Shown piece after piece: positions 2,254 to 43,446 of a DNA stretch of 43,446 bases (the stretch's first letter is position 1; every line of letters begins with the position of its first letter). Below the pieces are notes generated by a model. The model did no database searches. It was not told the DNA's origin and worked only from the letters and a program-made list of their open reading frames with translations. Made by a program: the position numbers and the translations under genes. The DNA is from Pseudomonadota bacterium (GTDB lineage: Bacteria; Bdellovibrionota; Bdellovibrionia; Bdellovibrionales; Bdellovibrionaceae). The stretch spans positions 1 through 43,446 of the forward strand of contig JBEGVH010000041.1 in the NCBI GenBank assembly GCA_041178425.1, in the 5' to 3' direction.

Positions 2254-2691
2254 ATGAAACCAGTTGTTTACAGAGGAACCATAACTCAATCAGAGCAGAA
2301 GAAGGCCTTTCAAGACGGGCATCTTTATTCGCTCGAACATATCAAAGGCATTACCAATGAGATGAAGTTTATTCTCTCCCGCTCTTCGCCCTATGGATTG
2401 TTTTTTCTGTATAAACAAAAAAGTAATAACCATCTCTGGATCAGCGGCCCCTTTAAAGGCAAAGAGACGAACTACTTTTTTTATTTAGGAAAACAACCCC
2501 TTCCAAAAGGAACCGGAACTTCTTTTGCCTCGGTCATTCGAAAAAACTTAGAAAATGATTGGAAGAAGTTCCGCGAAAACCAAAAAGACGAGGCCAGAGA
2601 TGTTGTTATCACTGACGTTGAATCTTTTCAGCGGTGGGCACGGTCGATCTTAAGCTTCGATGATGCCGCTTTTAGCGGTTATTTTGATTAA
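2254..2691 (+). CDS. Hypothetical protein (145 aa)
   Basis: ORF fills the gap between two minus-strand genes and has its own promoter; no family recognised. Confidence 0.7.
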   Translation: MKPVVYRGTITQSEQKKAFQDGHLYSLEHIKGITNEMKFILSRSSPYGLFFLYKQKSNNHLWISGPFKGKETNYFFYLGKQPLPKGTGTSFASVIRKNLENDWKKFRENQKDEARDVVITDVESFQRWARSILSFDDAAFSGYFD

Positions 2692-2696
2692 TTCGA

Positions 2697-3185
2697 TTAA
2701 AAGTCGTCGTAGTCGAGTTTGAATTCAGAAGGACTAGAAAAAATAATGAGTCTTTGATCGTAGGATTTATAATCAAGAACTCCTGTGGGATGATTCAGTT
2801 TATTATAAAGAGACTCCGCCGCAGACCCAGTCCAGCGAATGGTCACAGTTCTTCGAGATGAATCAATTCTTACTCCTGGCCATCGATAAATCATCAATGT
2901 TCCATCTACACGTCCCTTCGCGTTTTTTGTGAGCGCGATGGTCATGGCTTCTTTCCATTTTAATTTTTTTGTGGTCCCACTCCCAAAAAGGGAACTTGCT
3001 GACGCCCCTTTTAAGGCCTCATAGAGACGAATGGAGTCTTGATCTTCGCTTCCAACAGGACCCGAAGAAATATTAATTAAGGCTCTGTCTGCACCCATGG
3101 GAATGTGGGCGTGTGTGCCAGCTTGCACAGCCACCGAAACTGAAAAAAATAAGCTCATGAAAATAGCAAAATTAAGGCTCTTCAT
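2697..3185 (-). CDS. Secreted hypothetical protein
   Basis: Sec signal peptide (MKSLNFAIFMSLFFSVSVAVQA); AGGAG Shine-Dalgarno. Confidence 0.8.
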   Translation of the reverse strand: MKSLNFAIFMSLFFSVSVAVQAGTHAHIPMGADRALINISSGPVGSEDQDSIRLYEALKGASASSLFGSGTTKKLKWKEAMTIALTKNAKGRVDGTLMIYRWPGVRIDSSRRTVTIRWTGSAAESLYNKLNHPTGVLDYKSYDQRLIIFSSPSEFKLDYDDF

Positions 3186-3213
3186 AGTAACTCCTGTAGC
3201 GCCACAACCTAAT

Positions 3214-3243
3214 AAAAAAAGCCCGCAGAAGCGAGCTTTTTTT
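3214..3243 (-). terminator. Rho-independent terminator, possibly bidirectional
   Basis: Minus strand A7-GCTCGC-TTCT-GCGGGC-T7, 30 nt after the stop of 3273..3716. Confidence 0.8.
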
Positions 3244-3272
3244 CAGTGGTCTTAGACCTAGAGACGCTAAAA

Positions 3273-3716
3273 TTAAAAAGGAATGGTCACCAGAACATCA
3301 TCACCCACTGGGCCACGCGCCATCAGATCGTTCACGTCCTTAAAATCGGCATTGCCATTAGCGCCATAGGACCAAATATAGAGTATCGAATCTTTGTTTC
3401 CGTCACCCTTGACCTGAAAATAAAAGGGCTGCCCCCATGCATCACGCCCAACTTCTCCGTTAAGACTTCTGCGTGTCGCCACAGAATTCTCGGACTCAGA
3501 GGCCAATCCTCGCTCCGGTGCAGCTCCTGGAAGAAACACTTTTTGCTCAAACTTATCTTCGATAAGACGTCTTCCTACTATCTCAGCACGGCGAGAGGTT
3601 CTCTCTTCCGCACTAGGAACTCGATTTTTCTGAAGATAAGTCCAGATGAAAGTTGCCAGCGCTGCAACAATAATAACTCCGTACAAAATTCCAACTCTAT
3701 TTGATCCACGTCTCAT
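3273..3716 (-). CDS. GspG/T2SSG-like pseudopilin-domain membrane protein
   Basis: N-terminal TM helix; C-terminal DAWGQPFYF...IWSYGANG...GDD matches the GspG C-terminal signature; GGAGG SD; 9 nt gap from the upstream gene. Confidence 0.7.
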   Translation of the reverse strand: MRRGSNRVGILYGVIIVAALATFIWTYLQKNRVPSAEERTSRRAEIVGRRLIEDKFEQKVFLPGAAPERGLASESENSVATRRSLNGEVGRDAWGQPFYFQVKGDGNKDSILYIWSYGANGNADFKDVNDLMARGPVGDDVLVTIPF

Positions 3717-3725
3717 GAGTTCCTC

Positions 3726-5102
3726 CTACGGACAGCACTTATATTGAACGGTTAGATTTACACCAGGAGCCAATGCAGGAGTGAAAGTCATCTTACTTCC
3801 AGACAAGGTCCAGGTATACCCAGAAGGAAGAGTCACTACTGGAGTTCCCGAGGGAACACATTCCAGATCAACACTGCTCACCGTTGAAACGATAGCATCC
3901 TTAAAATATTTCAAGTTGGTCGAGTAATCGCTATCGCATATATTACCCACAGTTCCACTGGTCATATTAGCTAGTTCAATGTACTTCGTTCCAACAAACG
4001 ACAAGCTTCCTTGAGTGTCTTGCGATTGCTTACACTGATTATCAGGAACCACGATGCTGTTGACAGCCATTCGTTTGCCCGCCCCAAAAACAGCATTCGC
4101 AGTGTTCACGAAAGTTGATGGAAGATTTTGAACTCCCAGTGCCTGGTATTGCTGAGAACTGAGCGACTGATTACCACCCACTGATCTCTCATCTTCATCA
4201 GAAATAATAATTGCAGCAAAAGCAGATCCGCTTCGATAGCAAGGATAAACAGGGTTATTTAACATCGATAAAATAGAGGCTTTGATACCCTGCTCGTCAT
4301 TGCTATAACCTGAGCCAAGATCATTAATCGTTTGTTGGAACACCGCCGAGAGATTCGCCGTTGCTTTGGTGAGAATTCTTGAATTCGTGCCCGACCACTT
4401 TATCGGCCGTCCCTCATAGTAACTCACATCTGTTGTGGTAATACACATTTGCCAATCGATATTTGCCGACTGCAGATCTGTCACAAAACCATTCAATCGT
4501 TGCGAAAGCTTCGTGTTATCAGGAGTCATAGACGATGAATCATCAACCACAATCAAAATATCTACTTGGTTATTTCCGGTTGGGACATTCACTGCGAGTG
4601 ATTTATCAATTGGATTACAGCTACAAGCCTGTGTATTACAAACTTGCTGAGTGGCTGGCTTTTCTCCGGTGCATGAGCTGTCTGGTTTTACACCCGTAGT
4701 ATCTCGACACTCAACAGTTCGAAATTGATTTCCTCCTCCACAGGTAGCATTACAATCACCCCAAGAGCCAACATTCCAGGCTGGAGATCCGCCGCAGGAT
4801 TGACCATTACACTCTTGAGTCGCAGCCGGCTTGGCCTCTTTACAACGCTCTTCTGGAACGAGCTGATTATTTTTATTCACACAGGTCACTTCTCTGGATT
4901 GCTGACCAACACCGCAAGCCTGGGAGCACATTCCCCAAGCTCCCACCTTCCAAACAGAAGTACCATCTTCGGGTGGCCACGTTGGCGTGGGAGTGTTTAA
5001 ACAGGCAGGATCTGTGCAAGAGGTGCTTTTCGCTGAAAAGCGCACAGGAGAACAAGCCATTAAACCGGCAAAAAGAATCAAGAAAACTGAAGTCTTCAAC
5101 AT
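3726..5102 (-). CDS. Lipoprotein with two thrombospondin type-1 (ADAMTS-like) repeats and a vWA/MIDAS domain
   Basis: Lipobox LMA-C from the M17 start; two WxxGxWxxCxxxCGxGxQxRxVxC...C...KP...C repeats (~4952-4794 and ~4778-4623); DILIVVDDSSSM (DxSxS) and IISDEDE. Confidence 0.88.
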   Translation of the reverse strand: MLKTSVFLILFAGLMACSPVRFSAKSTSCTDPACLNTPTPTWPPEDGTSVWKVGAWGMCSQACGVGQQSREVTCVNKNNQLVPEERCKEAKPAATQECNGQSCGGSPAWNVGSWGDCNATCGGGNQFRTVECRDTTGVKPDSSCTGEKPATQQVCNTQACSCNPIDKSLAVNVPTGNNQVDILIVVDDSSSMTPDNTKLSQRLNGFVTDLQSANIDWQMCITTTDVSYYEGRPIKWSGTNSRILTKATANLSAVFQQTINDLGSGYSNDEQGIKASILSMLNNPVYPCYRSGSAFAAIIISDEDERSVGGNQSLSSQQYQALGVQNLPSTFVNTANAVFGAGKRMAVNSIVVPDNQCKQSQDTQGSLSFVGTKYIELANMTSGTVGNICDSDYSTNLKYFKDAIVSTVSSVDLECVPSGTPVVTLPSGYTWTLSGSKMTFTPALAPGVNLTVQYKCCP

Positions 5103-5259
5103 CTTACAACATCCTTGTTGTTTTATTATGTTCAGAATAGCCAGCATCATAGGATTGAGGCCAGCACAAATTCAGCATCGCCAGACCTTTGCCTAGACCA
5201 ATTTAATAACACATAAATGAAGACGAAACCCTATAAGCGTTCCAACCGTCATTCAAAAT

Positions 5260-29186: not shown

Positions 29187-30308
29187 CTAAAACTTGAATT
29201 TGCTTCGGAAGGTCAACTGCACCCCCCAAACATTATTTGTTGAATCCAATCGTTCTTGCCCACGCAAGGCCGGCATTGATGGCATCCAAATGACTAAAGG
29301 TGTGATTGACATTTGATCATTCGCTTTATAGCGCCCATACACGCGGACTTCTTGAAAGCTTCCACCTTCATTTTCTACTTGTCGTCCGAAGCTATTCTCT
29401 CGAAGAGAGGAGCCCACTTGCCCGTAAATGAACTCGGCCCCTAAACGCTGCCAATCTGGGATTTCTATGAGTCCTTTGACTGCCCAAGTGTGCCCACCCG
29501 AAATTTTTGTCTGAAAACCATCCGAACCTTGCATGAGTCCCGCATTACTGTAAAGGGCTCCATTATTTAAATCCTGAGCCGACCCAAAGGCCCCTAAATA
29601 ATGCTGATAGAGTCCATTCATTGTTATTGGATCGTTGAGGGCCTCAGGAGAAACATTTAGTTTTTCATTAAGGGTTCTTTCTCCAAAATAGAGATAACTC
29701 ATCTCAGCACCGATGAGAACTTTTCCAGTTCTTACCGTCATGGCCACTTCCGGTCGAACGCTCCAACCTCCGCGGTAGAAGTTTCCCTTGGCTGACTCTT
29801 TTTCGAGGGACACCTCTCTCTCCAAACTGGCAGGACCTAAACTTGGAGAAAACGTTAGCGCCATGCGAAAGTTTCCATTGCGCCAAGGAATATGATGACC
29901 AATAAAAAATTCGGGGTCGGCCAGTCCCGATTCATCATAGAGCTCGGCTTCCCAGCGATTGGCAAAACCAGCCGTTGCTCCAAAATAAGTATAGCGGGAT
30001 AAGGCTGCTGCATAACGTAAGCGCAAAAGAGTTTCTTGATTGGATGTACTGAAAGAACCTAATCCCATGGTGTCAAAGGGATTTGTCATTCCCTCCCAGC
30101 TCTTACCAAGGGTTTCAATATCAAAAAGATGGACGCCCTTCTGTAAATTAATTTGATTGACGGGAATGAGCTCCCCGAGAAGCGGAGTTTCGCTGCGTTT
30201 CCAATAATCGGAGCCGACAGTGCTCAATTGATTTTGGGCCATCCCCAGTGTTGAAACCAAGCTAATAGCCAATGCAATAAATAAGGGACGCAGGCGTTTT
30301 TTTTCCAT
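29187..30308 (-). CDS. Putative outer-membrane beta-barrel protein
   Basis: Signal peptide from MEKKRLRP...GMA; alternating amphipathic strands; C-terminal ...GVQLTFRSKFKF beta-signal ending in Phe. Confidence 0.7.
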   Translation of the reverse strand: MEKKRLRPLFIALAISLVSTLGMAQNQLSTVGSDYWKRSETPLLGELIPVNQINLQKGVHLFDIETLGKSWEGMTNPFDTMGLGSFSTSNQETLLRLRYAAALSRYTYFGATAGFANRWEAELYDESGLADPEFFIGHHIPWRNGNFRMALTFSPSLGPASLEREVSLEKESAKGNFYRGGWSVRPEVAMTVRTGKVLIGAEMSYLYFGERTLNEKLNVSPEALNDPITMNGLYQHYLGAFGSAQDLNNGALYSNAGLMQGSDGFQTKISGGHTWAVKGLIEIPDWQRLGAEFIYGQVGSSLRENSFGRQVENEGGSFQEVRVYGRYKANDQMSITPLVIWMPSMPALRGQERLDSTNNVWGVQLTFRSKFKF

Positions 30309-30310
30309 AA

Positions 30311-30502
30311 CTACATAAAGAGCAAGGCCAATGCCACCAAGAAGAGCCCTAATAACCAATAAAATTGATTTAGATGCAACGAGAGCGTCAAAGTTATTAA
30401 CAGATCGATCACTGAGGGGCCATAGACATCCGCCAATGCTGACATGCCGATCGTCAAACTAGATAACTGATACAATTTATTCTTTTTTATGAACCCCAGC
30501 AC
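30311..30502 (-). CDS. Small hydrophobic membrane protein (63 aa), tentative
   Basis: GTG start, strongly hydrophobic C-terminus, stop 2 nt before the barrel ATG. Confidence 0.4.
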   Translation of the reverse strand: MLGFIKKNKLYQLSSLTIGMSALADVYGPSVIDLLITLTLSLHLNQFYWLLGLFLVALALLFM

Positions 30503-30827
30503 TTACGACTTTCAGTGCTCTAAAATATTTTCAATTTCTTCAATGCAACAAAATAATTTTTGTTGATTCAATCCGGTTCAACTCTGATTTTTTTGAAAAC
30601 TCTTTTTTTGTTTAACAAATATTATCTGTTTAAATCTGATTCGCCCTTTTGATCAACTTTGCGCAATTTGAAAACAGGCACTTCGTCGGTTTCTCTCAAC
30701 GTTAATCGCCTCTTATACGAGCAACTACTCACTTTAAAACACGACCAAATGTCTAACACGAAGTTTCATTTTTCTGATTTGTCTCAACCCGAGTCGAGAT
30801 TTTTGCTGGACCCCCCAGTTGACACCT

Positions 30828-30854
30828 TAAGTCTAATCGAAGCTCTGCCGATAG
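30828..30854 (+). promoter_or_regulatory. sigma28 (FliA)-type promoter for the giant fibre gene
   Basis: TAAG-N15-GCCGATAG versus consensus TAAA-N15-GCCGATAA, 8 nt before ATG 30863. Confidence 0.7.
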
Positions 30855-30862
30855 GTTAAGTG

Positions 30863-33800
30863 ATGCAAAGGATTGGTTTAGAAAAACTTTTTATGAATAA
30901 GAAAACTCTCACCGCGAATAAGAAATTTGCGATGGGCAACCTTTTAGTGATGTGGTTAATTCTTCTTATCTCGAATTACACTCACGCCGCCGACTACGGC
31001 GTCACTTATCAAGGAAAAATCGTTACCGATGCAGGACGCCCGCTCGTCGCCTCTAAAGTTGATTTCACTCTGAGAATTTTAGAATCCCGATCAAATTGTT
31101 TACTTTATAGTGAAAAACAATCGATCGACATGTCGTCTGGCGATGGAACCTTCTACTTGATTTTAGGTAAGGGCACGAGGATCGACAACGAACATTCGCT
31201 CGCTTTCGAAAAAATCTTCGATCCGGGTGCTCAACTTCCGGTCTCCTTAAACTGTCCACTGGGTTACGCTAAACAGCCTGGCGATGGTATGCGCTTGATG
31301 GCCTACTTCAACGCCGGCACTGGCCCGCAGGTTTTACGTCCTCTCGATATTAACCCGACTCCACTGAGTATTGACACAGTCAACGTGGGTGGTGTTTCAA
31401 GTTCGAATGTTCTAAGAGTCTCTGATGGCACGGCCGCCCCCATGACAGCGGCGAATTTGACCTACCTCACTTCAATACTTGCAAAAAACGGAACTATTAT
31501 AAGTAATGGAGTGTCAACTCGCGATCTTACTCTCGCTAATACCACGAACAATCAAGTTATGCTTAAGGCGCCAGAGGGTTCGTTTTCGAATTTCTCAATC
31601 GGGCTTCCTTCAAGTTCGGGTACCCAAGGGCAATTACTTTCTGCCGATGGTAGCGGTAACCTCGTTTGGTCGAACCCTCAGGGTGGCGGTACGGTTCTAT
31701 CGGTCACAGCAGGAACCGGACTTTCGGGCGGAACCATCACAAGCGTGGGTACCATAGGGCTTGCAGACACAGCTGTAACCCCCGGAACCTATGGTGGTAA
31801 CGGAGCCGTTCCTACTTTTACAGTCGATGCTCAAGGTCGAATCACATCAGCGAGCAATGCGGGAATTCCGAATGCTGATGCGACCAACTCAGGTTTATTA
31901 ACCACCGAAGACTGGAATAGATTTAACAATATGGTTCCGCTCACTGGTGGAACAATGACAGGAATGCTTCAACTTCCGAGCGGTGGTCTTCGCATCGGGG
32001 CCAATCAGTTCTACATGAACGGCAACAAGATCGGTCTCGGCACGACAACACCAACAGCCATTCTCCATTTGGGATCATCCGTTGGCTACCCCGCCATGAA
32101 ATTTACGGCCACGACACCAATAACTACGCCCGAAGCGGGCTCTCTTGAATACGACGGAACAAATCTCTTATTAACTGATAGCACTGGTCAAAGAACCGCC
32201 TTGGGCTTTGCTGGCCAGGGCATCGGCACCTTAATTGGTGACGTGAGCGCCACAGGTAATGGAACCGCGAATGCCATCGTTAACTCGGTAGGTGGATCGA
32301 CCGCCAACGAAATTCGAACGGCTGAACGCGCAGTGAATGTTACAGCAACAGCTAATAGCACGGCTTCCACACTGGTTAAGCGGGATGCTAGCGGTGGTGC
32401 TGCCTTTAAAGCTGTAAAAATTGATAATGTGGGTGGCAACAGCGTCACCTTAAAGTCGCCGCTGGCCCTCACAAGTTATGATATTACTTGGCCGAGTGCC
32501 GTTCCTGGAGCCGCTAATAGCGTTCTCCTTTCAGATACGAATGGAACTCTTTCTTGGGGCGATATTAGCAACATCACGGGAACTGTTGACCTCTCCAGCA
32601 ATAAAGTCACTGGTGTTCTTCCGATCGCCAATGGTGGTACGAATTCAAACACGGCACTCACTAATAACCAATTAATGGTGTCTGATAATGGCGCCATTAA
32701 AGAGTTTGGGGCGATGACCGATGGCCAAGTGATCGTTGGTAAAACAGGGTTTGCCCCTCAAAAAGTCGCGCTCTCAGGCGATATCAGTATCGATAACACA
32801 GGCGCAACCACAGTGAACTCTATCGCGGGTACCGCTGTGTCTGGTGTTGGTCTTGCCACTAACAACGTTTTACAAAATACTTCCGGTAGCGCTATTCCTG
32901 CAAACAGCCTTCTTATCACCAATGGCACAGGCACCGGCGTCACTGGATTATCCACCGGAGTGAATGGGGCGCTCGTTTCTGTGGGTGGTGTTTTACAATG
33001 GCAGGTTTTAACCGCCCAACTATTAGGTCTCGGTAACGTTGAAAACGTTGCCATCTCGACGTGGCCGGGCTCTGCCAACATCACAACCGTTGGAACCATT
33101 GGTAGCGGCACTTGGCAAGGTTCAGCCGTAGGGCCCACTTATGGTGGTACGGGCCAAACCACTTATGCCACGGGAGATATGCTCTACGGTAGCGCTCCAA
33201 ACACTCTTAGCAAATTATCCGGAAACACATCGACAACCACTAAATTTATGGCGCAAACCGGAGATGGCACCAACTCTGCCGCGCCAGTATGGTCGACAGT
33301 TTCAAAAAGCGACGTTGGTTTGGGAAATGTTGAAAACCAGGCTCTCTCCACTTGGACCGGCACCAACACAATTACAACCCTTGGAACAATTACCACGGGC
33401 ACATGGAATGGTTCAACGATCGCTCTCGACAAGGGTGGTACGGGGGCGACTGATGCTGCGACAGCAAGAACAAATTTAGGCGCTGCTGTGGCTGGAGCCA
33501 ACGGAGATATCACTTCTCTTACCGCTACGACATCAATTACGAGCACAGATATTTTGGCTTTGGCTTCCTCCACCGATAAAGACATCACAATCACTCCCGG
33601 TGGAAATGGCAACACTATTATTGGCGGCAATGTTGGAATTGGCTCTGCGGCACCCACTAACAAGTTAGAAGTCGTTGGCACTAATGGGACAACCGTCAAA
33701 ATCGTGGATGGCAACCAGGGTGTCAATAAAGTCCTCACCTCTGATGCCGACGGGGTCGCTCGATGGGCTGATTTACCAACGTCAGCACCCTCCACCGCTG

Positions 33801-36800
33801 GTACAGCTATCCTTAAGGGTAACGGCAGTGGTGGCTTTGCAGCGGCAGTTGTAAACACTGATTATCTTGGAATCACCGGACACACAAGCGTAACGACACT
33901 TGGTACAGTCACTACTGGTACTTGGAATGCAACCACGATCACTTCTGCGAAGGGTGGTACCGGACAGACCAGTTATAGCTTGGGCGACATCCTCTTCGGT
34001 AACGCTGGAGGCTCACTCAGCAAACTCACTGGTAACACTTCGGCAAATAAACAATTTTTATCTCAAACGGGCAACACTGTAACTTCGAACGCTCCCGTTT
34101 GGTCGAGTGTTTCTAAATCTGATGTGGGCTTAAGCAACGTCGAAAACACAGCTCTTTCCACTTGGACGGGCACAAACACGATCACTACATTAGGAACGAT
34201 CTCCACTGGTACCTGGAATGCCACAACCATCGCTGTAAATAAGGGCGGTACCGGAGCCACTGATCCTGCAGCGGCGAGAACAAACCTTAATGCCGCAGTC
34301 AAAGGCGCGAATGATGACATCACTTCACTGACAGGCGCCAACTCCATCACCAGCCCTTCTGCTCTTAATTTGGAGTCGGCTGCTAACCAAAATGTGAATC
34401 TTTCACCGGGCGCAAATGGTTTTGTTAATTTTAACAGCAGCGCCATGATGGGCACCAACGATCCAACTTTTAATACGGGTGCTTATCAAACACAAAACCG
34501 CATTTTCGCCATCAGTGGCGACGGCAGCGGAAGTGCACAATCCACTGGTATACTGGCCCTTGGCAACAATCGTCCCACTCCAGCCCCAGATGACGTGGCT
34601 GGTAGCATTGACTTCATCTCCAGCGGCAATGGAACTGGTCTCGCGCAACTTGGCGCGCGAATTAAGTCGATTGTTAAAGGCGATGGTGGAACTAATGGGT
34701 ACGGCCAAGATATCGCCTTTTATACCAAGGGCGATGATGCTGCTGTTATTTCGGAAAGAATGCGTATCGCTAATAATGGATATGTCGGTATCGGCACGTC
34801 TTCTCCAACGGCAAAACTAGAGGTCGTTGGGGGCGTTGGCGTTAAACCATTAAAAATCGTTGATGGCAGCGAAGGCAATGGCAAGGTCCTTACTTCAGAT
34901 GCAACAGGTAATGCCACTTGGCAAGCTCCAACAATTGGCGCACCGCCTACCTCAGGAACTTCAATTTTAAAAGGTGACGGTTTGGGTGGCTTTAATAGTG
35001 CCGTTGTGGGTGTTGACTATCTTGGCGCCTCGGGCGGCCCCACACTCACGACCGCCGGTACCATCACCACCGGAACATGGAATGCGACGGCGATCAGCCC
35101 TGCTTTTGGTGGTACTGGAATTACTACTTATAACATTGGTGATATGGTTTATGCCAACGGAACAAGTACCTTTCAAAAAATTGGTGGTAACCAAACTAAC
35201 AGCACCATGTTCCTTTCTCAAACAGGAAATGGTTCACTCCCAGGCGCCCCCGTTTGGAGAGGTATCACAAAGACAGACGTTGGTCTATCGAACGTCGAAA
35301 ACACCGCTCTTTCAACATGGGCGGGTTCAAGCAACATAACCACTCTGGGAACTATTACCACTGGTACATGGAATGGCTCAACGATTGCCGTTAATAAGGG
35401 TGGTACCGGCGCAACCGATGCGGGAGTTGCTCGTACAAACCTCGGTGCGGCGGCATCGGGTGCGAATGGCGACATTACATCACTAACAGCAACAACAAGC
35501 ATTACTAGTACAGCGGCCCTTGCGCTTAATTCAGCGGCCAACGAGAACATCACACTTTCTCCAGGTGGTTCGGGAAAAACAGTTGTTAATAGCAACATGG
35601 GCATCGGCACGACAGATCCTTCTTTCGGAACCAGCCTCTACCCGCTTCCTGCTCGGGTCATGGGAGTGACCGGCGATGGTTCAGACGCCGACACTTCCAA
35701 TGGAGTGATTGCCTTGGCCAACAACCGCCCCACACCCGCTGCAGGCGACACCGTGGGAGCCCTCGACTTCGTATCGGTGAATAATGGTTCCGGTGCTGCT
35801 CGTATGGGCGCAAGAGTAAAATCAGTCCTCACCGGTGCGGGTGGATCAAACGGCTTCGGACAAGATTTGATCTTCTACACAAAAAATGACGATGCTGCTA
35901 CCGCTACCGAAAAAGTTCGCATTACTCAGGGTGGTAAAGTGGGTATCGGCACGAATGCCCCTGGCACCATGCTCGAAGTCGTAGGAACCAGTGGCAACAC
36001 CCTCAAAATCGTTGATGGAAATCAGGGCATTAATAAACATCTCGTCTCTGATGCCAATGGTGTGGCTTCTTGGGCTCCGATTCCAGCATCAGCGCCTCCG
36101 ACTGGTGGAAGTGCCATCCTCAAGGGCGATGGAGCTGGTGGTTTTACTAACGCTGTGGCCAACACAGATTATCTCAGCATTACTGGGGCGAACAGCGTTA
36201 CCACTCTCGGTACAATCACAACTGGCACATGGAACGGAACAAAAATCGATCCAGCGTATGGTGGAACAGGCATCACTAGTTACACCGCGGGGGATATGGT
36301 TTACGCTACTGGTGCGACCACTCTTGAAAAAATGGCAGGTAACGCCACTCTCACAAAGAAGTTTATGTCACAATCCGGATCAGGCTTTTTACCGAATGCG
36401 CCTGAATGGTCTACGGTCACTAAAGCAGATGTGGGTTTGAGCAACGTAGAAAACACCGCTCTCTCAACATGGCCAGGATCGGCTAACGTCAGCACGGTCG
36501 GAACCATCACGTCGGGCACATGGAATGGTACGGCTGTTGGGATCGGATACGGTGGTACGGGCGCGACTGATGCGGAAACAGCTCGATCGAATTTAGGCGT
36601 TGCAGTTAAAGGTTCTAACAACGACATCACGGCGTTAAATGCCACAACTCAGATCAACAGCCCTAATGCGCTCATCTTAAGATCAGGAACAGATCAAGAT
36701 ATTACGTTCGAGCCTGGCGGCGTTGGTACGACCATCATAAATTCAAACATCGCCGTTAACACGCTTGACCCCACATTCAGCACGGGTCTTTATAATTCAC

Positions 36801-39800
36801 CAACGCAAATTATGTCGATCACAGGCAAAGGAACTGCAAGCGCCACTTCTAACGGTGTCCTCGCCCTCGCTAACAACCGTGCTACTCCGACGGTCGGCGA
36901 CACTGTGGGTGCAGTAGATTTCATTTCTGTGGGTAACGGTTCTGGTGCAGCTCAACGAGGCGCACGTATTAATTCCATATTGACGGGTTCTGGCGGTGGC
37001 AATGGTTTTGGGCAAGACCTTATTTTCTACACCAAAGGTGATAATACCACGTCATCAAGTGAGCGTGTTCGCATCACTAACGCTGGTAAAGTGGGTATCG
37101 GCACAAACACTCCGAGCACAATGCTCGAGGTGAACGGTGGTAACGGAACAACTTTAAAAATTGTCGATGGCAATCAGGGTACTAATAAATACTTAAAATC
37201 TGATGCCAACGGGGTAGCTTCTTGGGCAACCATCCCCTCTTCTGCACCCCCAACCTCCGGTACAGCCATTCTTAAGGGCGATGGAGCTGGTGGAACATCA
37301 AGTGCTGTAGCGAACACTGATTATCTCTCAATCACTGGACACACGAGCGTAACAACTCTCGGTACCGTAACCACTGGTACATGGAATGCAACGACGATCG
37401 GAACTGGATACGGCGGAACCGGAAATACAACCTATGCTCTTGGCGATATTTTATTCGGCGATGCGAGCAACTCACTCACAAAACTTTCCGGTAATACTTC
37501 GGCCACGAAAAAATTCCTCTCACAACAGGGAACAGGTTCAGGGTCAGCCGCTCCTGTTTGGCTAGATGTTACTAAAACGGACGTTGGCCTCAGCAATGTC
37601 GAAAACACAGCCCTCTCCACTTGGCCTGGGTCAACGAATATCGTTTCAGTGGGAACAGTCACTTCTGGAACTTGGAGAGGAACGCCCGTCGAAGTTGCTT
37701 ATGGTGGAACGGGCGGTACTAACGCAACCTCAGCAAGAACGGCATTAAGTGCAGCAAAGAGTGGCGACAATAGTGATATCACGGGCCTAAACACCGTGCG
37801 TTCCATCACAAGCGATCAATCGCTTGCCTTACAATCGGCGAGCAATCAAAATATCGTTCTCACTCCTGGTGGAGCTGGCAACACGATCTTAAACGGAAAT
37901 ATCGGTGTTAATAACGCTAACCCGGCATATGCGTTTGATATGGTCGGCGCTACGATGAGAACAACTCGCTATTCTGCTGATGCAAATCCAGCCACGTTTA
38001 TCTTAGGTAAAGCTCGCGGAAACGCAGGCGGCGCCGCCGCTGCCGAATCGGCAGATGTGCTGGCTCAAATTTCGGCTCAAGGTTACGATGGAACGAGCTT
38101 CGCTGATGGTGGAATGATCCGCTTTAAAGCCACCGAAAACTTTGGCGGAGCCGCCAACGGTACATCGATTGAACTTTTAAACAAACCAAATGGCAGCACG
38201 ACTCTCACCTCGCGAATGTTTATCGGCCAAGATGGAAAAGTGGGTTTCGGAACTACAACTCCTGCTGCCAATTTAGAAGTAAAAGGCGACTTCCGCATCA
38301 ACGGAACGACTTCAGGCTATGTTGGATTTGCCTCTCAAGCCGCAGCGGGTTCAACCACATATACTTTCCCTACTGCTCCTACCAACGGGTACTTTTTATC
38401 TACAGATGCGACTGGTAACTTGAGCTGGTCGGTGCCGACCTTATCAACGGTCTCTGGTATTTTGCCAGTAGCCAATGGCGGAACGGGCGCTGCCACAGCC
38501 TCAGCAAATAAAATATTTGCTGGCCCAACAACTGGTGCTGATGCGGCTCCAAGTTATCGGTCACTGGTGGCAGCGGATATCCCTGCCGCGGCCGGTGATG
38601 TATCAGGTGCTTACTCAGCATTGGCCGTAGATAAAATTAAAGGCGTTCCACTTTCAATCACAACACCTGCTACTGGCAACTTCTTGAAGTACGATAGCGG
38701 AAACTGGGTAAACGCTAATATTACGGCGAGTGATATTGCATCCGGACAAGTTGCTATGGCGAATGGCGGCACCGGTGCGAATCTTACCGCTAATAATGGT
38801 GGAATCGTTTACACCGATGCGACTAAGATGGCGATTCTCAATGGAACCGCCACGTCAGGACTTCCCCTTCTCTCTGGTGCTAACGCTGCTCCCACTTGGG
38901 GCACGGTGAATCTTTCGGGTGGAAACGTATCGCTTCCTGCAACAGGCACTGTGTCCACGTCTGCGGGTAACCTCACTGTTCGTGGTGCGGCAGATACGAT
39001 CGTTGGTAACGACACTGTCACAGCAACCACTTCAATTTATGGTGGCGCTAACGGCGCAACCAACATGGTGCTTAACTCCACCGGTGTTGCGGTAGCTGGC
39101 AATGTAGCTGTTACAGGTAACGTCTCTGCCACAGGCAATATTAGCGCAACTAACTTTGTTCCAACAAGCGCAACAGTACCAACGAATGGTCTCTATCTCC
39201 CAGCTGCAAATACTGTTGGTATTGCCTCCAATACCACGGCTGCCGCTCGATTTACGGCTACCAATGCTATGGTGGCAGGAAAATTCGGAATTGGCTCAGC
39301 AACGACGGCTCCTAGTTATGATCTCGGCATCGATGGCACTGCGGCTCGCACCATGGGTGTCGAGCGTAACTCTGCGGGCGACGCAGGCGGAGCTCTCACC
39401 CTCACTGCTGGTGGTGCTGCTCTTAACTCGAGTGATAAAGCGGGCGGAGACCTAATTTTGGCTAGCGGAGTCTCAACCGGAACAGGCTCATCGAAGATTT
39501 CATTTCAAACATCGCCAGCCGGAGGTGCCGGATCAAGCGATAATGCTGCCGCCACTCGCATGACAATCCTTGGCAATGGTAATGTGGGTATTGGTACGAC
39601 AACACCAACAGCCCTTCTTGATGTTAAGGGAACAATGAGATTAAGTGGATCCACTTCTGGTTACGTGGGTTTGGCAACACAAGCAGCCGCTGGCAACACG
39701 ACCTATACTCTCCCCGCTGCCCCAACCGCGAATCACTTTTTACAAACAGATGCCAACGGTCAGTTAACATGGGCGGCTCCCAGTGTATCGACAGTCACTG

Positions 39801-42800
39801 GAATTTTACCGATTGCTAACGGTGGTACTGGTGTGGGTTCTTCTAATCAAAACACTGTTTTTGCAGGCCCCCTTTCTGGAAATGGCGACCCTACTTTTAG
39901 AATGCTCACTGCCGCTGACTTACCTTCGGCCGCAGGTGATGTCTCTGGTGGTTATGCCGCTCTGTCTGTTGATAAAATTAAAGGTGTTTCATTAACAATG
40001 AACAGCCTCACAAATGGTAACTTTTTAAAATACAATGGCACAGACTGGGTGAATTCCAATCTTTCAGCCTCTGATATTACTTCGGGTCAATTAGCGATGT
40101 CTCGCGGTGGAACTGGCGCGAGTATCACTGCAAACAACGGTGGTATTGTTTACTCTGATGCTTCGAATCTCGCACTACTTAACGGAACAGCAACGGCTGG
40201 CCTGCCTCTCGTATCCGGTGCAAGCGGAGCTCCAGCTTGGTCTACCGTTAGTTTGGCCAGCGGCAATGTGACCTTGCCTGCCGCCGGGACTTTAGCCACA
40301 GCAAGCGGTGACCTGACTGTAAAAGGCGCTGCAGATACATATATTGGTAATAATGTCGCTGGCTCCACCACGATATATGGTGGCACCGGCGGAGCATCGA
40401 ATATTGTCGTCAACACAACTGGCACTACAGTGACTGGAAGCCTTTATGCTCCGAATTTAATTCCAAGCAGCAACGTGGTACCAACAAATGGTGTTTACTT
40501 GCCAGCAGCTAACACTGTAGGTATTGCCGCTAACTCTTTGGCGGCAGCAAAATTTTCATCAACGTCTGCGAATTTCCTCGGTAAAGTTAGCATCGGACCT
40601 GTGTCAACGACCCCTGTCAATGATCTCGGTCTCGATGGAACGGCCGCTCGCAGCATTGGTATTGAGCGCAACCCGGACCCAGCGAACGGGCAAAACCTAA
40701 CAGTGGTCGCTGGAGGCGCGCAAACTGGCGGAACCGACAGAGCGGGCGGCGACTTGATCCTTTCGAGTGGCGTCTCAACAGGCACGGGGTCTTCAAATAT
40801 CCAATTTAAAACGGCTGCCGGCGGAGGCGCTGGCTCCAATGACCGAACCCCTGCTACGCGAGTCACTATTCTCGGTAGCGGAAACGTGGGTATCGGAACA
40901 ACTTCACCGCAATCTCTCCTCGATGTTAAAGGTAACTTTAGAATTTCTGGTTCTACAGATGGCTCTGTCGTACTCGCTGCTCCAACATCAGGAGCTTCAG
41001 CTACCTACATCCTGCCGCCCGCACCTACGAATGGTGCCTTCTTAACAACGGATGGGACGGGCACTCTTAGCTGGGGAAGCCCAAGTCTTTCTTCGGTCAG
41101 TGGAGTATTACCGATTGCAAATGGTGGTACTGGCGCTGCCACGACAACTCAAAACTATGTCTTCGCTGGTCCTCCAGCAGGCGGAACAGGCGCGCCAAGT
41201 TATAGATTGTTAGTATCGTCAGATATTCCAAACGCAGCCGGAGATGTATCCGGCAATTATGGATCACTCACCGTCGATAAAATTAAAAACGTGGCACTAT
41301 CAATCACCAGCATAACCAGCGGTAACTTCTTAAAGTACAATGGCACAAACTGGGTCAATTCAAATCTCTCTGCGAGTGATATTGCGTCTGGCGAACTTGC
41401 CTTGAATCGTGGTGGATCCGGAGCCAATCTCACAGCGAACAATGGTGGTATCGTTTATTCGAACGCCTCTAGCCTAGCCATTTTGAATGGCACGGCCACC
41501 GCTGGGTTACCACTCATCTCTGGTTCTAATGACACTCCGGCATGGTCTACCGTTAGTCTCGCGAGCGGAAATGTCACACTTCCAAACACTGGTACTATAT
41601 CAACAAGCAGTGGTGACTTAACAGTAAAAGGTGCGGCCAACACTAATCTCGGCAACAGTGGCGTCACTGGAACGACGACGGTCTACGGTGGAACAACGGG
41701 TGGATCAAGAGTCACTCTCGATACAACGGGCGTGACTGTGACTGGTAGCTTCTACGCGCCTAACTTAATCCCAAGTAGCTCTGTGGCACCAACAAATGGT
41801 ATTTACCTCCCAGCCGCCAACACAGTTGGTATTTCTGCCAGCTCGACGGCATCGGCTCAGTTCACATCAACAACGGCTGCTTTTGTCGGAAAACTAGGTA
41901 TCGGATCTCTCACTGCTCCAGCCAATGACCTCAGCTTTGCAGGCACTGCCGCACGCACGATTGCCGTTGAACGAAACACAAGCGCAGCCGCAGGACAAGG
42001 ACTTACTATCAATGCGGGTGGTGCAAAATCTGGCGAATCAAATCTCGCCGGTGGTGATCTTACCCTCTCAAGTGGTATTTCTACTGGCAACGGAACATCA
42101 AATATTTACTTTAAGACGGCGGCCGCTGGCTCTTCAGGTTCTTCAGACCAAGCGCCTGCTACTCGTATGACTATCCTCGGCAGTGGAAATGTGGGTGTCG
42201 GCACTTCGACGCCAACATCTCCTCTTGACGTCAAGGGCGAATTCAGAATCAGCGGTGCTACTTCTGGTTATGTAGGATTCGCCGCCCAAGCGGCTGCAGG
42301 CACAACAACCTATACGCTGCCAGCGGCTCCTCAGGCTGGCAAATTCCTGCAAACCGATGGCAATGGTGCTTTAACGTGGGTGACTCCTGACCTTTCAAAT
42401 GCCATCTCTGGAACACTTGGGGTTGCTAACGGCGGTACAGGAGCCAGCACTTTAACCTCTAAAGGAATTCTGTACGGAAACGGCACTAGCGCTGTTGGCG
42501 TCACCGCTGCAGGCTCTCAGTATCAGGTATTGCAAGCAGGTTCGGGCGGTACACCAGAGTTTGGAGCGCTTCATCTTGACCAAGCAGCAGCTATTACTGG
42601 CACACTCCCCGTTAATAATGGTGGTACGGGGATCACCACTGGCACTCAAGGTGGCATGGTTTACTTTAGTGCCAATAACATGATGGCATCGACAGGTGCG
42701 ATGACTCAATATGGTCTCGTATACGGTGGAGGAACGGGATCTGCGCCCGCTTCGACTGGTGCTATGACCGATGGTCAATTCATTGTTGGTAAAAATTCGA

Positions 42801-43446
42801 GTGCGCCTCAGGTTGTGACAATGGGTGGAGACGCCATCGTGAGCAATACTGGTACAGTGACTGTCAATCTCACTGGTAATACAACGCTCAAAGCACTTGG
42901 TCTTGGCGTGAGCCCAGGAGCAGGTCGTATCGTGGTGACTGATAACTCATCAGGTGCAACACTGATCACTGCTGACCCAACTTCTTCTGACTACTTTACG
43001 CAGTATGCGCGCTTGAATGGTCGAGGCAGTTCACAGGTTTTCTATGGCGCAACATCTGCAAGCGGCAGCCTTTATCTCGAATCAACTCTCGACGCCACAA
43101 AAGGGAACGTGATTATTAACTCTGCTGGAGGAAACGTCGGTGTCGGCACGTCTTCACCGCTTTCAACCCTCGATGTTAATGGTGACATCAGAATCCGAGC
43201 GACTGATGCAAGTTCAATTATCTTGCGCGCCCCTACTGGTTCTGGAGTGACTTATACTTTCCCTGCCTCAGCGCCTGGAACCGCCACTGGAAAGTTCTTA
43301 ACCGCAAACACATCGGGCACTTTATCGTGGGCTGAACCGGTGGGCGTTGCTCCGGATGTCGCATCGGCTACTGGTACGCTAGCAGTTGGTCACGGCGGTA
43401 CGGGCTTAACGAGCGGTACTTCTGGAGGTATCCCTTACTTTAGCGC
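30863..43446 (+). CDS. Giant secreted phage-tail-fibre-like adhesin (MAT-like), >4190 aa, 3' end outside the window
   Basis: Hand translation gives MQRIGLEKLFMNKK...LILLISNYTHA/ADYGVTYQGKI...CLLYSEKQSIDMSSGDGTF. The same frame reads AVGHGGTGLTSGTSGGIPYFS at the window end and is in frame at every point checked. Fibre motifs TPGTYG...TVDAQGRIT, KSDVGLGNVEN, LPIANGGTG and GNVGIGTTTP recur. Alternative start 30893. Confidence 0.9.
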   Translation, partial: MQRIGLEKLFMNKKTLTANKKFAMGNLLVMWLILLISNYTHAADYGVTYQGKIVTDAGRPLVASKVDFTLRILESRSNCLLYSEKQSIDMSSGDGTFYLILGKGTRIDNEHSLAFEKIFDPGAQLPVSLNCPLGYAKQPGDGMRLMAYFNAGTGPQVLRPLDINPTPLSIDTVNVGGVSSSNVLRVSDGTAAPMTAANLTYLTSILAKNGTIISNGVSTRDLTLANTTNNQVMLKAPEGSFSNFSIGLPSSSGTQGQLLSADGSGNLVWSNPQGGGTVLSVTAGTGLSGGTITSVGTIGLADTAVTPGTYGGNGAVPTFTVDAQGRITSASNAGIPNADATNSGLLTTEDWNRFNNMVPLTGGTMTGMLQLPSGGLRIGANQFYMNGNKIGLGTTTPTAILHLGSSVGYPAMKFTATTPITTPEAGSLEYDGTNLLLTDSTGQRTALGFAGQGIGTLIGDVSATGNGTANAIVNSVGGSTANEIRTAERAVNVTATANSTASTLVKRDASGGAAFKAVKIDNVGGNSVTLKSPLALTSYDITWPSAVPGAANSVLLSDTNGTLSWGDISNITGTVDLSSNKVTGVLPIANGGTNSNTALTNNQLMVSDNGAIKEFGAMTDGQVIVGKTGFAPQKVALSGDISIDNTGATTVNSIAGTAVSGVGLATNNVLQNTSGSAIPANSLLITNGTGTGVTGLSTGVNGALVSVGGVLQWQVLTAQLLGLGNVENVAISTWPGSANITTVGTIGSGTWQGSAVGPTYGGTGQTTYATGDMLYGSAPNTLSKLSGNTSTTTKFMAQTGDGTNSAAPVWSTVSKSDVGLGNVENQALSTWTGTNTITTLGTITTGTWNGSTIALDKGGTGATDAATARTNLGAAVAGANGDITSLTATTSITSTDILALASSTDKDITITPGGNGNTIIGGNVGIGSAAPTNKLEVVGTNGTTVKIVDGNQGVNKVLTSDADGVARWADLPTSAPSTAGTAILKGNGSGGFAAAVVNTDYLGITGHTSVTTLGTVTTGTWNATTITSAKGGTGQTSYSLGDILFGNAGGSLSKLTGNTSANKQFLSQTGNTVTSNAPVWSSVSKSDVGLSNVENTALSTWTGTNTITTLGTISTGTWNATTIAVNKGGTGATDPAAARTNLNAAVKGANDDITSLTGANSITSPSALNLESAANQNVNLSPGANGFVNFNSSAMMGTNDPTFNTGAYQTQNRIFAISGDGSGSAQSTGILALGNNRPTPAPDDVAGSIDFISSGNGTGLAQLGARIKSIVKGDGGTNGYGQDIAFYTKGDDAAVISERMRIANNGYVGIGTSSPTAKLEVVGGVGVKPLKIVDGSEGNGKVLTSDATGNATWQAPTIGAPPTSGTSILKGDGLGGFNSAVVGVDYLGASGGPTLTTAGTITTGTWNATAISPAFGGTGITTYNIGDMVYANGTSTFQKIGGNQTNSTMFLSQTGNGSLPGAPVWRGITKTDVGLSNVENTALSTWAGSSNITTLGTITTGTWNGSTIAVNKGGTGATDAGVARTNLGAAASGANGDITSLTATTSITSTAALALNSAANENITLSPGGSGKTVVNSNMGIGTTDPSFGTSLYPLPARVMGVTGDGSDADTSNGVIALANNRPTPAAGDTVGALDFVSVNNGSGAARMGARVKSVLTGAGGSNGFGQDLIFYTKNDDAATATEKVRITQGGKVGIGTNAPGTMLEVVGTSGNTLKIVDGNQGINKHLVSDANGVASWAPIPASAPPTGGSAILKGDGAGGFTNAVANTDYLSITGANSVTTLGTITTGTWNGTKIDPAYGGTGITSYTAGDMVYATGATTLEKMAGNATLTKKFMSQSGSGFLPNAPEWSTVTKADVGLSNVENTALSTWPGSANVSTVGTITSGTWNGTAVGIGYGGTGATDAETARSNLGVAVKGSNNDITALNATTQINSPNALILRSGTDQDITFEPGGVGTTIINSNIAVNTLDPTFSTGLYNSPTQIMSITGKGTASATSNGVLALANNRATPTVGDTVGAVDFISVGNGSGAAQRGARINSILTGSGGGNGFGQDLIFYTKGDNTTSSSERVRITNAGKVGIGTNTPSTMLEVNGGNGTTLKIVDGNQGTNKYLKSDANGVASWATIPSSAPPTSGTAILKGDGAGGTSSAVANTDYLSITGHTSVTTLGTVTTGTWNATTIGTGYGGTGNTTYALGDILFGDASNSLTKLSGNTSATKKFLSQQGTGSGSAAPVWLDVTKTDVGLSNVENTALSTWPGSTNIVSVGTVTSGTWRGTPVEVAYGGTGGTNATSARTALSAAKSGDNSDITGLNTVRSITSDQSLALQSASNQNIVLTPGGAGNTILNGNIGVNNANPAYAFDMVGATMRTTRYSADANPATFILGKARGNAGGAAAAESADVLAQISAQGYDGTSFADGGMIRFKATENFGGAANGTSIELLNKPNGSTTLTSRMFIGQDGKVGFGTTTPAANLEVKGDFRINGTTSGYVGFASQAAAGSTTYTFPTAPTNGYFLSTDATGNLSWSVPTLSTVSGILPVANGGTGAATASANKIFAGPTTGADAAPSYRSLVAADIPAAAGDVSGAYSALAVDKIKGVPLSITTPATGNFLKYDSGNWVNANITASDIASGQVAMANGGTGANLTANNGGIVYTDATKMAILNGTATSGLPLLSGANAAPTWGTVNLSGGNVSLPATGTVSTSAGNLTVRGAADTIVGNDTVTATTSIYGGANGATNMVLNSTGVAVAGNVAVTGNVSATGNISATNFVPTSATVPTNGLYLPAANTVGIASNTTAAARFTATNAMVAGKFGIGSATTAPSYDLGIDGTAARTMGVERNSAGDAGGALTLTAGGAALNSSDKAGGDLILASGVSTGTGSSKISFQTSPAGGAGSSDNAAATRMTILGNGNVGIGTTTPTALLDVKGTMRLSGSTSGYVGLATQAAAGNTTYTLPAAPTANHFLQTDANGQLTWAAPSVSTVTGILPIANGGTGVGSSNQNTVFAGPLSGNGDPTFRMLTAADLPSAAGDVSGGYAALSVDKIKGVSLTMNSLTNGNFLKYNGTDWVNSNLSASDITSGQLAMSRGGTGASITANNGGIVYSDASNLALLNGTATAGLPLVSGASGAPAWSTVSLASGNVTLPAAGTLATASGDLTVKGAADTYIGNNVAGSTTIYGGTGGASNIVVNTTGTTVTGSLYAPNLIPSSNVVPTNGVYLPAANTVGIAANSLAAAKFSSTSANFLGKVSIGPVSTTPVNDLGLDGTAARSIGIERNPDPANGQNLTVVAGGAQTGGTDRAGGDLILSSGVSTGTGSSNIQFKTAAGGGAGSNDRTPATRVTILGSGNVGIGTTSPQSLLDVKGNFRISGSTDGSVVLAAPTSGASATYILPPAPTNGAFLTTDGTGTLSWGSPSLSSVSGVLPIANGGTGAATTTQNYVFAGPPAGGTGAPSYRLLVSSDIPNAAGDVSGNYGSLTVDKIKNVALSITSITSGNFLKYNGTNWVNSNLSASDIASGELALNRGGSGANLTANNGGIVYSNASSLAILNGTATAGLPLISGSNDTPAWSTVSLASGNVTLPNTGTISTSSGDLTVKGAANTNLGNSGVTGTTTVYGGTTGGSRVTLDTTGVTVTGSFYAPNLIPSSSVAPTNGIYLPAANTVGISASSTASAQFTSTTAAFVGKLGIGSLTAPANDLSFAGTAARTIAVERNTSAAAGQGLTINAGGAKSGESNLAGGDLTLSSGISTGNGTSNIYFKTAAAGSSGSSDQAPATRMTILGSGNVGVGTSTPTSPLDVKGEFRISGATSGYVGFAAQAAAGTTTYTLPAAPQAGKFLQTDGNGALTWVTPDLSNAISGTLGVANGGTGASTLTSKGILYGNGTSAVGVTAAGSQYQVLQAGSGGTPEFGALHLDQAAAITGTLPVNNGGTGITTGTQGGMVYFSANNMMASTGAMTQYGLVYGGGTGSAPASTGAMTDGQFIVGKNSSAPQVVTMGGDAIVSNTGTVTVNLTGNTTLKALGLGVSPGAGRIVVTDNSSGATLITADPTSSDYFTQYARLNGRGSSQVFYGATSASGSLYLESTLDATKGNVIINSAGGNVGVGTSSPLSTLDVNGDIRIRATDASSIILRAPTGSGVTYTFPASAPGTATGKFLTANTSGTLSWAEPVGVAPDVASATGTLAVGHGGTGLTSGTSGGIPYFS
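33332..37600 (+). repeat. Repeat block A in the fibre gene: one 270-aa unit and three 384-385-aa units
   Basis: EN(Q/T)ALSTW anchors at 33332, 34142, 35297, 36449 and 37601 (spacings 810, 1155, 1152, 1152 nt). Confidence 0.85.
38273..42223 (+). repeat. Repeat block B in the fibre gene: three 434-448-aa units
   Basis: L(D/E)VKG anchors at 38273, 39617, 40919 and 42224 (spacings 1344, 1302, 1305 nt); DKIK anchors at 38630, 39971 and 41276. Confidence 0.85.

Follow-up and report, generated by a model that had tools for sequence, protein, structure and literature searches.

Mosaic adhesive trimer (MAT) proteins are, to our knowledge, the only fibres for prey recognition in Bdellovibrio that have been defined at the molecular level. 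The 21 MATs of HD100 are 626–1,959 aa long and 'typically ~1,000 aa', and in the accessible supplementary tables of the defining paper further MATs reach 1,915 aa (Caulton et al. 2024, PMC10769870, Tables S1 and S3). The window analysed here (the whole stretch of 43,446 nt, which is the entire contig C41 of genome G000; 3.06 Mb, 43 contigs, completeness rated 100%) ends inside an open reading frame that is already far longer, which raises the question of what this frame encodes, how long its complete product is and what such a length may be for. Judged by its sequence, the product belongs to the S74-type MATs, of which it is a giant form expanded by repeats. The family, the fold and the maturation route of such proteins are already known; the giant repeat-expanded size is what is added here.

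The forward frame that opens at the ATG at position 30863 encodes 4,194 residues without a single stop up to the window end (30863–43444, + strand; codons 1–4194 of 4,868), as the preliminary description had claimed. A shadow ORF was rejected, as the five remaining frames across the same DNA hold 105–297 stops each. Alternative starts lie at ATG codons 11 and 24 and at an in-frame GTG at 30860. The frame lacks a stop in the window because the assembly ends there. The gene had also been described as missing; it is indeed absent from the track of stop-terminated ORFs, but NCBI holds a 4,195-aa partial product (P0010, from a 43,446-nt contig). A search for proteins resembling residues 3600–4194 retrieved P0002 (JGI/IMG, 52,859-nt contig), a 4,868-aa protein identical to the window over residues 1–4194, which forms a three-member cluster with P0010 and P0011 (Logan, 24,281-nt contig, also 4,868 aa). 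Two other assemblies thus give the full length, and the final 674 codons (2,025 nt including the stop) lie beyond the contig end. In G000, tblastn gave no near-identical match to the missing 674 residues, and no other contig end overlaps with this one.

The Logan contig X3 (24,281 nt) covers positions 30000–43446 and continues for another 9,853 nt. It differs from the window by 54 substitutions and two 1-base insertions, both upstream of the gene, and carries no indel in the ORF. In one run, the final 30 bases of the window are where two alternative contigs of 157 nt each (depth 6 and 13.7) begin; presumably the assembly broke because of two alleles immediately beyond 43446. Small shares of the stretch were present in runs X5 and X6, which were left out of any reading of habitat; the JGI metagenome scan gave no match to the locus and none of the RNA runs contains the stretch. 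A promoter scan 5′ of the gene returned one site, against 1.5 expected by chance.

The N terminus ties the product to the MAT family. Residues 1–42 (30863–30988, +) are likely to be a Sec signal peptide, judged by sequence reading and hydropathy: a Lys-rich n-region and a hydrophobic core lead to a T-H-A cleavage site after residue 42, hydrophobicity over 19-aa windows peaks in the one that begins at residue 22 and the paralogs in G000 have a matching layout. Residues 33–184 (30959–31414, +) match the NCBIfam MAT N-domain NF053851 with 70–70.5 bits, over the curated cut-off of 60. This region contains the only two cysteines of residues 1–4194, C79 and C131 (invariant and 90% conserved, respectively, among 32 homologues), in line with the Cys-pair domain proposed beforehand. 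An AlphaFold2 model of the N-domain, built with 31 homologues, is a beta-sandwich composed mostly of strands (mean pLDDT 81.6). Foldseek found no clear structural match to this model (best E 3.7e-3), and VIA-align returned generic Ig-like sandwiches only (best Z 6.8, rmsd 3.0, 91 aligned residues), which says nothing about the anchor of the domain.

The protein owes its length largely to two tandem macro-repeat arrays, absent from the preliminary description, which together make up about 65% of the chain and emerged from windowed self-comparison. Array A (33008–38233, +; ~384 aa × 4.5) consists of a partial unit (residues 716–974) followed by four ~384-aa units (975–2457), which are 45–63% identical and contain KxDVGLxNVEN, ARTNL and capping-loop motifs. 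Array B (38234–42442, +; ~435 aa × 3.2) comprises three units of ~435–448 aa (2458–3774) and the head of a fourth (to 3860); these are 61–66% identical, and each opens with a GxVGxGTxxP capping loop. By the same windowed comparison, a distal, less regular part of the shaft (42443–43444, +) extends to the end of the contig. At the DNA level, neighbouring units are merely 58–60% identical in array A and 62–64% in array B, and we therefore regard the duplications as old. TRF detected no DNA tandem repeat in the array region, its longest period (500 nt) being shorter than the units, and a self-BLAST of the whole protein gave no off-diagonal match. An assembly chimera or a collapsed repeat was rejected on account of this divergence between units and because X3 spans the stretch with the ORF intact.

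Several lines of evidence indicate that the shaft is built like that of known MAT fibres. The fibre motifs reported earlier are present in residues 1–4194: GxVG[IV]GTxxP occurs seven times in strict and 12 times in looser form, KxDVGLxNVEN five times, LPIANGGTG/LPVANGGTG three times and YTLP/YTFP/YILP five times, and G, T, A, S and N make up 59% of the composition. A capping-loop pattern that we built on the consensus in Fig. 4c of Caulton et al. (PMC10769870), [VIM][GA][IVFL][GN]xxxPxxxL, has 12 matches. In a phmmer search of the PDB, an internal beta-helix module at residues 2371–2513 (37973–38401, +) matched 8OML (E 7.9e-8), 8ON4 (4.9e-6) and 8OL4 (7.6e-6), from the solved non-S74 (NS74) MATs Bd1334 (8OML) and Bd2439 (8OL4). 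The likeness is to their tip-proximal beta-helix. In the giant, by contrast, this module sits in the middle of the shaft, and the C-terminal end is an S74 domain rather than a beta-sandwich or TNF-like tip. Predicted as three copies, residues 2340–2620 (281 of the 4,670 mature residues) gave a trimer score of 0.89, against 0.00 for the best of three controls, with the runs agreeing in at least 96% of their contacts and pLDDT of at least 95 (96). Of 30 solved pairs, 21 attained the mark for this score, as against none of 23 single chains, in a calibration that used two copies rather than three, and the score may echo the likeness of the segment to the solved MATs. By prediction only, this result supports a homotrimeric fibre over residues 2340–2620, in keeping with the trimeric fold that had been suggested.

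The C terminus lies outside the window. Following the frame past its end, as had been advised for detection of an S74 domain, revealed PF13884 (Peptidase_S74) at residues 4713–4764 of P0002, with 58.5 bits against a cut-off of 22. The SDRRLK motif is intact and precedes a coiled-coil-like tail, and the region matches the phage fibre chaperone of PDB 6F45 and PHROG 33119 (long tail fibre distal subunit). Residues 1–4194 by themselves gave no match in Pfam or PHROG scans; S74 came to light solely with the missing tail. In the mature tip, only about 70 residues with one capping loop come before S74, and no lectin or sandwich domain was recognised there. With an N-domain over the family cut-off, an S74 end and a match to solved MAT fibres, the proposed membership of the MAT family is well founded.

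The accessible description of the S74 MATs of HD100, such as Bd3182, shares with this protein a signal peptide, directly after it a beta-rich N-domain of ~130 aa, capping loops, a C-terminal S74 domain with SDxxxK and a coiled coil, and membership of a chromosomal multi-gene family with mosaicism among paralogs; the giant differs in its 4,868 aa, in its tandem 384- and 435-aa arrays and in having 12–13 capping loops rather than two at the tip. An ordinary MAT examined in the same way (L007, 1,434 aa) has no tandem arrays. Bd3182 cleaves itself at S782, and its modelled length is ~550 Å, or ~55 nm (PMC10769870, in the part available).

From these likenesses we consider it likely that the gene encodes an S74-type MAT in which tandem arrays lengthen a homotrimeric surface fibre, a long-reach adhesin directed at prey or at surfaces that carry prey. 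The chain would be exported through Sec and, as its sequence suggests, lose its signal peptide after residue 42. The S74 domain and coiled coil would then trimerise, chaperone an intertwined beta-helical shaft and, by analogy with S782 of Bd3182, cut themselves off at the serine of SDRRLK, Ser4713. The mature chain (residues 43–4712; 4,670 aa, ~457 kDa; trimer ~1.4 MDa) would be kept at the surface by the MAT N-domain. Its repeats would stretch the shaft to 130–340 nm, compared with the length modelled for Bd3182; this estimate (133–338 nm) comes from scaling by four published length-per-residue ratios and carries their 2.5-fold spread. The freed tip cleft, and possibly also the 12 capping-loop beta-helix modules on the shaft, would bind surface glycans. 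Surface display and binding of prey or glycans are here attributed to the giant from its family, by analogy.

Phage tail fibres share parts of this design, and the gene could instead encode a prophage or tailocin tail fibre, not a host surface protein. The matches of the S74 region to PHROG 33119 and PDB 6F45 fit this idea, as do the Atlas clusters nearest to repeat A, which are viral hypothetical proteins (0.92). Phage fibres and tailspikes have the same S74 chaperone-protease and a predicted intertwined trimeric beta-helix, and Caulton et al. cite the T5 L-fibre and the K1F endosialidase as phage proteins with an intramolecular S74 chaperone (PMC10769870, as far as accessible). In the giant, however, a signal peptide and MAT N-domain replace the virion-attachment domain, the same N-terminal arrangement is common to ten other loci on seven other contigs of G000, and residues 1–4194 are without a PHROG match. 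The upstream neighbours are cellular (a CDF transporter and FadE-like, RNase Y-like and M13 peptidase genes), and none of 25 upstream ORFs matches a PHROG family annotated as virion structural; these 25 were scanned from 31 ORFs of at least 100 aa, six overlapping or short ones being left out. The earlier statement that no phage structural genes lie nearby agrees with these upstream ORFs. Of 201 Bdellovibrionales genomes, 138 have a match to NF053851, as against none of 14 controls. A phage origin was already disfavoured, and we judge it highly improbable.

Two other genes upstream are of separate interest. At 29187–30359 (−), divergent from the giant gene, lies a 390-aa ORF with no Pfam, NCBIfam or PHROG match, whose product looks secreted and ends in a C-terminal Phe, as in outer-membrane beta-barrels; it may be considered a candidate outer-membrane partner of the giant. 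The other, at 3726–5150 (−), encodes 474 aa that look like a lipoprotein and include thrombospondin type 1 domains, along with a region resembling NF052240, a family of Bdellovibrio MIDAS adhesins (127 bits, below the cut-off of 700).

The host genome carries a whole family of such genes. NF053851 has 11 matches in G000, ten of them over the cut-off, on frames of 524 to more than 4,194 aa with both S74 and non-S74 ends. This MAT content, and a GTDB family shared with the top NF053851 scorers, point to placement of the genome in the Bdellovibrionales and to a predatory lifestyle. The N-domain of the giant is 45–48% identical to those of four short paralogs, whereas its S74 domain (69%) and residues 400–700 (46%) find their match in a 3,083-aa paralog on contig C9, and several shaft segments are 42–48% identical to it. 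As different segments have different closest paralogs, the giant is a mosaic. The C9 paralog (G000:C9:36669–45917, +; L045:1670–10918) is a second large MAT, complete and S74-ended, with few internal repeats.

Other fibre-like genes were encountered in the same genome. At G000:C20:90826–88363 (−), a 524-aa MAT is followed after 130 nt by a separate 254-aa ORF with a signal-like start and an S74-like end. Four S74-ended proteins (621, 686, 688 and 839 aa) fall outside the MAT N-domain matches (G000:C9:255846–261786, +, L043:2847–8787; G000:C26:38257–35741, −, L044:1242–3758); three are in tandem, and three start with a prepilin-like hydrophobic segment, for which the matches are weak and below cut-off (N_methyl E 0.013, Flp_Fap E 0.011, GspH E 0.0025). 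They are possible pilus- or pseudopilus-mounted S74 fibres. Two G/T/A/N/S-rich ORFs without the strict capping-loop motif, at G000:C21:62364–50599 (−) and G000:C6:19630–29340 (+), extend over 3,922 and 3,237 codons from stop to stop.

How unusual is a MAT of this size? At 4,868 aa it is 2.5 times as long as the longest MAT in the available part of the defining paper (PMC10769870). Nor is a MAT of this size described in the accessible literature, mostly non-subscription papers and without the 29 Peredibacter MATs tabulated in Table S5 or the supplements of the preprint, which could bear on the point (PMC10769870, PMC13147790, PMC11656739, PMC13689555 and bioRxiv 10.1101/2023.11.21.568195, among others). 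The preliminary description had called it exceptionally long, which is right in comparison with these described MATs but not with genomes at large, as five others carry frames of 4,146–5,884 aa (G055, 5,884; G017, 5,498; G093, 4,595; G165, 4,522; G025, 4,146). G093 is a complete genome, as is G024, which has a frame of 3,886 aa. These are the 5 of 415 listed MAT-N frames in 93 other genomes that exceed 4,000 aa: 2 of 132 in 40 genomes, 2 of 150 listed from 161 in 23 genomes and 1 of 133 in 30 genomes, the latter two sets being carriers picked outside the best-scoring genus, and all lengths being underestimates wherever a contig end cuts the frame. Kept apart from this count are 150 matches listed of 857, nearly all from one genus, the longest of 2,511 aa. 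Giant MATs are thus a rare recurring class, accounting for roughly 1% of MAT frames in these genomes, rather than a one-off. A word-seeded N-domain search among proteins of 2,677–8,519 aa found only the giant itself, which reflects the limited sensitivity of that search, since other giants exist.

Like this protein, the five other giants combine a MAT N-domain with tandem repeats, which cover 59–84% of their windows; two carry Pfam S74 and two end in a non-S74 tip. They differ in having their own repeat units, some of them near-identical and young (95–100%). Shaft windows of our protein have a median of 64 identical residues per 100 within the protein itself, against 21–27 in the giants of other genomes, which indicates, without a tree, separate expansions. 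In four other genomes of the genus there is no full-length counterpart, and repeat A has one weak match (35%) in one of the four.

Size might be largely neutral, the outcome of unequal crossing-over in a redundant family that adds shaft without special function. The continuous variation of MAT sizes, from below 600 to 5,884 aa, would be expected on this account, and the young repeats of other giants and the missing counterparts within the genus also speak for it. Yet the old repeats of this gene have stayed in frame at a constant unit size, and a 14.6-kb gene would presumably be costly in a genome of this size. Strain variation also tells against neutrality. All 18 X3 differences that fall inside the ORF, among the 40 listed of 56 variant places, are synonymous, as are all 13 tested differences in a second set, making 31 of 31 tested differences in the window's ORF silent. 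P0002 and P0011 differ at ten amino acids, none in residues 1–4194 and all at 4294–4624 near the tip; these replacements are conservative (mostly V/I and T/S) and may represent one recombined patch. The shaft is therefore constrained, with variation gathering near the tip, and we regard neutral growth as improbable. Just 5′ of the gene, at 30449–30650, strains differ by at least 22 substitutions and two insertions within ~200 nt, probably because the allele at the likely promoter region has been swapped.

In other bacteria, very long adhesins built from repeats typically serve to tether the cell to surfaces or biofilm. On that general ground, the trimeric fibre might chiefly be a holdfast-like tether to particles, biofilm matrix or abiotic freshwater surfaces, leaving recognition of prey to short MATs; a mature tip without a recognised lectin or sandwich domain, and the existence of similar giant fibres that lack the MAT N-domain (for example, P0003 and P0006), agree with this. 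Against it, the S74 MATs described so far, as exemplified by Bd3182 in the accessible text, likewise end in a bare beta-helix cleft, which is the proposed binding site, and the tagged MATs tested were all surface exposed on attack-phase predators (PMC10769870). We rate a chiefly tethering role as rather unlikely and retain the long-reach adhesin as the favoured reading. Against this reading, single MAT deletions in HD100 caused small or no defects (PMC10769870), and in Peredibacter prey range did not widen with the number of MATs (PMC13147790).

A broader proposal, tentative and in our estimate somewhat doubtful, is that giant MATs of 4,000–5,900 aa form an undescribed, repeatedly evolved set of long-reach capture fibres in Bdellovibrionales. 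Tandem beta-helix cassettes would build trimers of 0.2–0.35 micrometres with a dozen or more binding clefts, which could pass across capsules, S-layers or matrix to hold on to prey multivalently, their length being tuned by repeat number. This giant and the five others do indicate that relatives build MATs four to six times the usual ~1,000 residues through separate tandem duplications, which turns fibre reach and valency into a testable variable of prey range. The regular 384- and 435-residue cassettes are amenable to expression, structure solution and deletion singly. Such genes are undercounted, as this case illustrates: the assembly breaks within the gene at the point where strains begin to vary.

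Related vocabulary and recent copying can be seen elsewhere. In G096, 14 of 15 MAT-N matches score 160–163 bits on frames of differing length, which suggests recent copying or conversion of the N-domain. P0003 is a 6,840-aa fibre with an S74 end and 21 capping-loop motifs, and P0006 (source label Parcubacteria) a 6,998-aa fibre with 23; judged by eye, the N termini of both are unlike the MAT domain, placing MAT shaft vocabulary outside the MATs.
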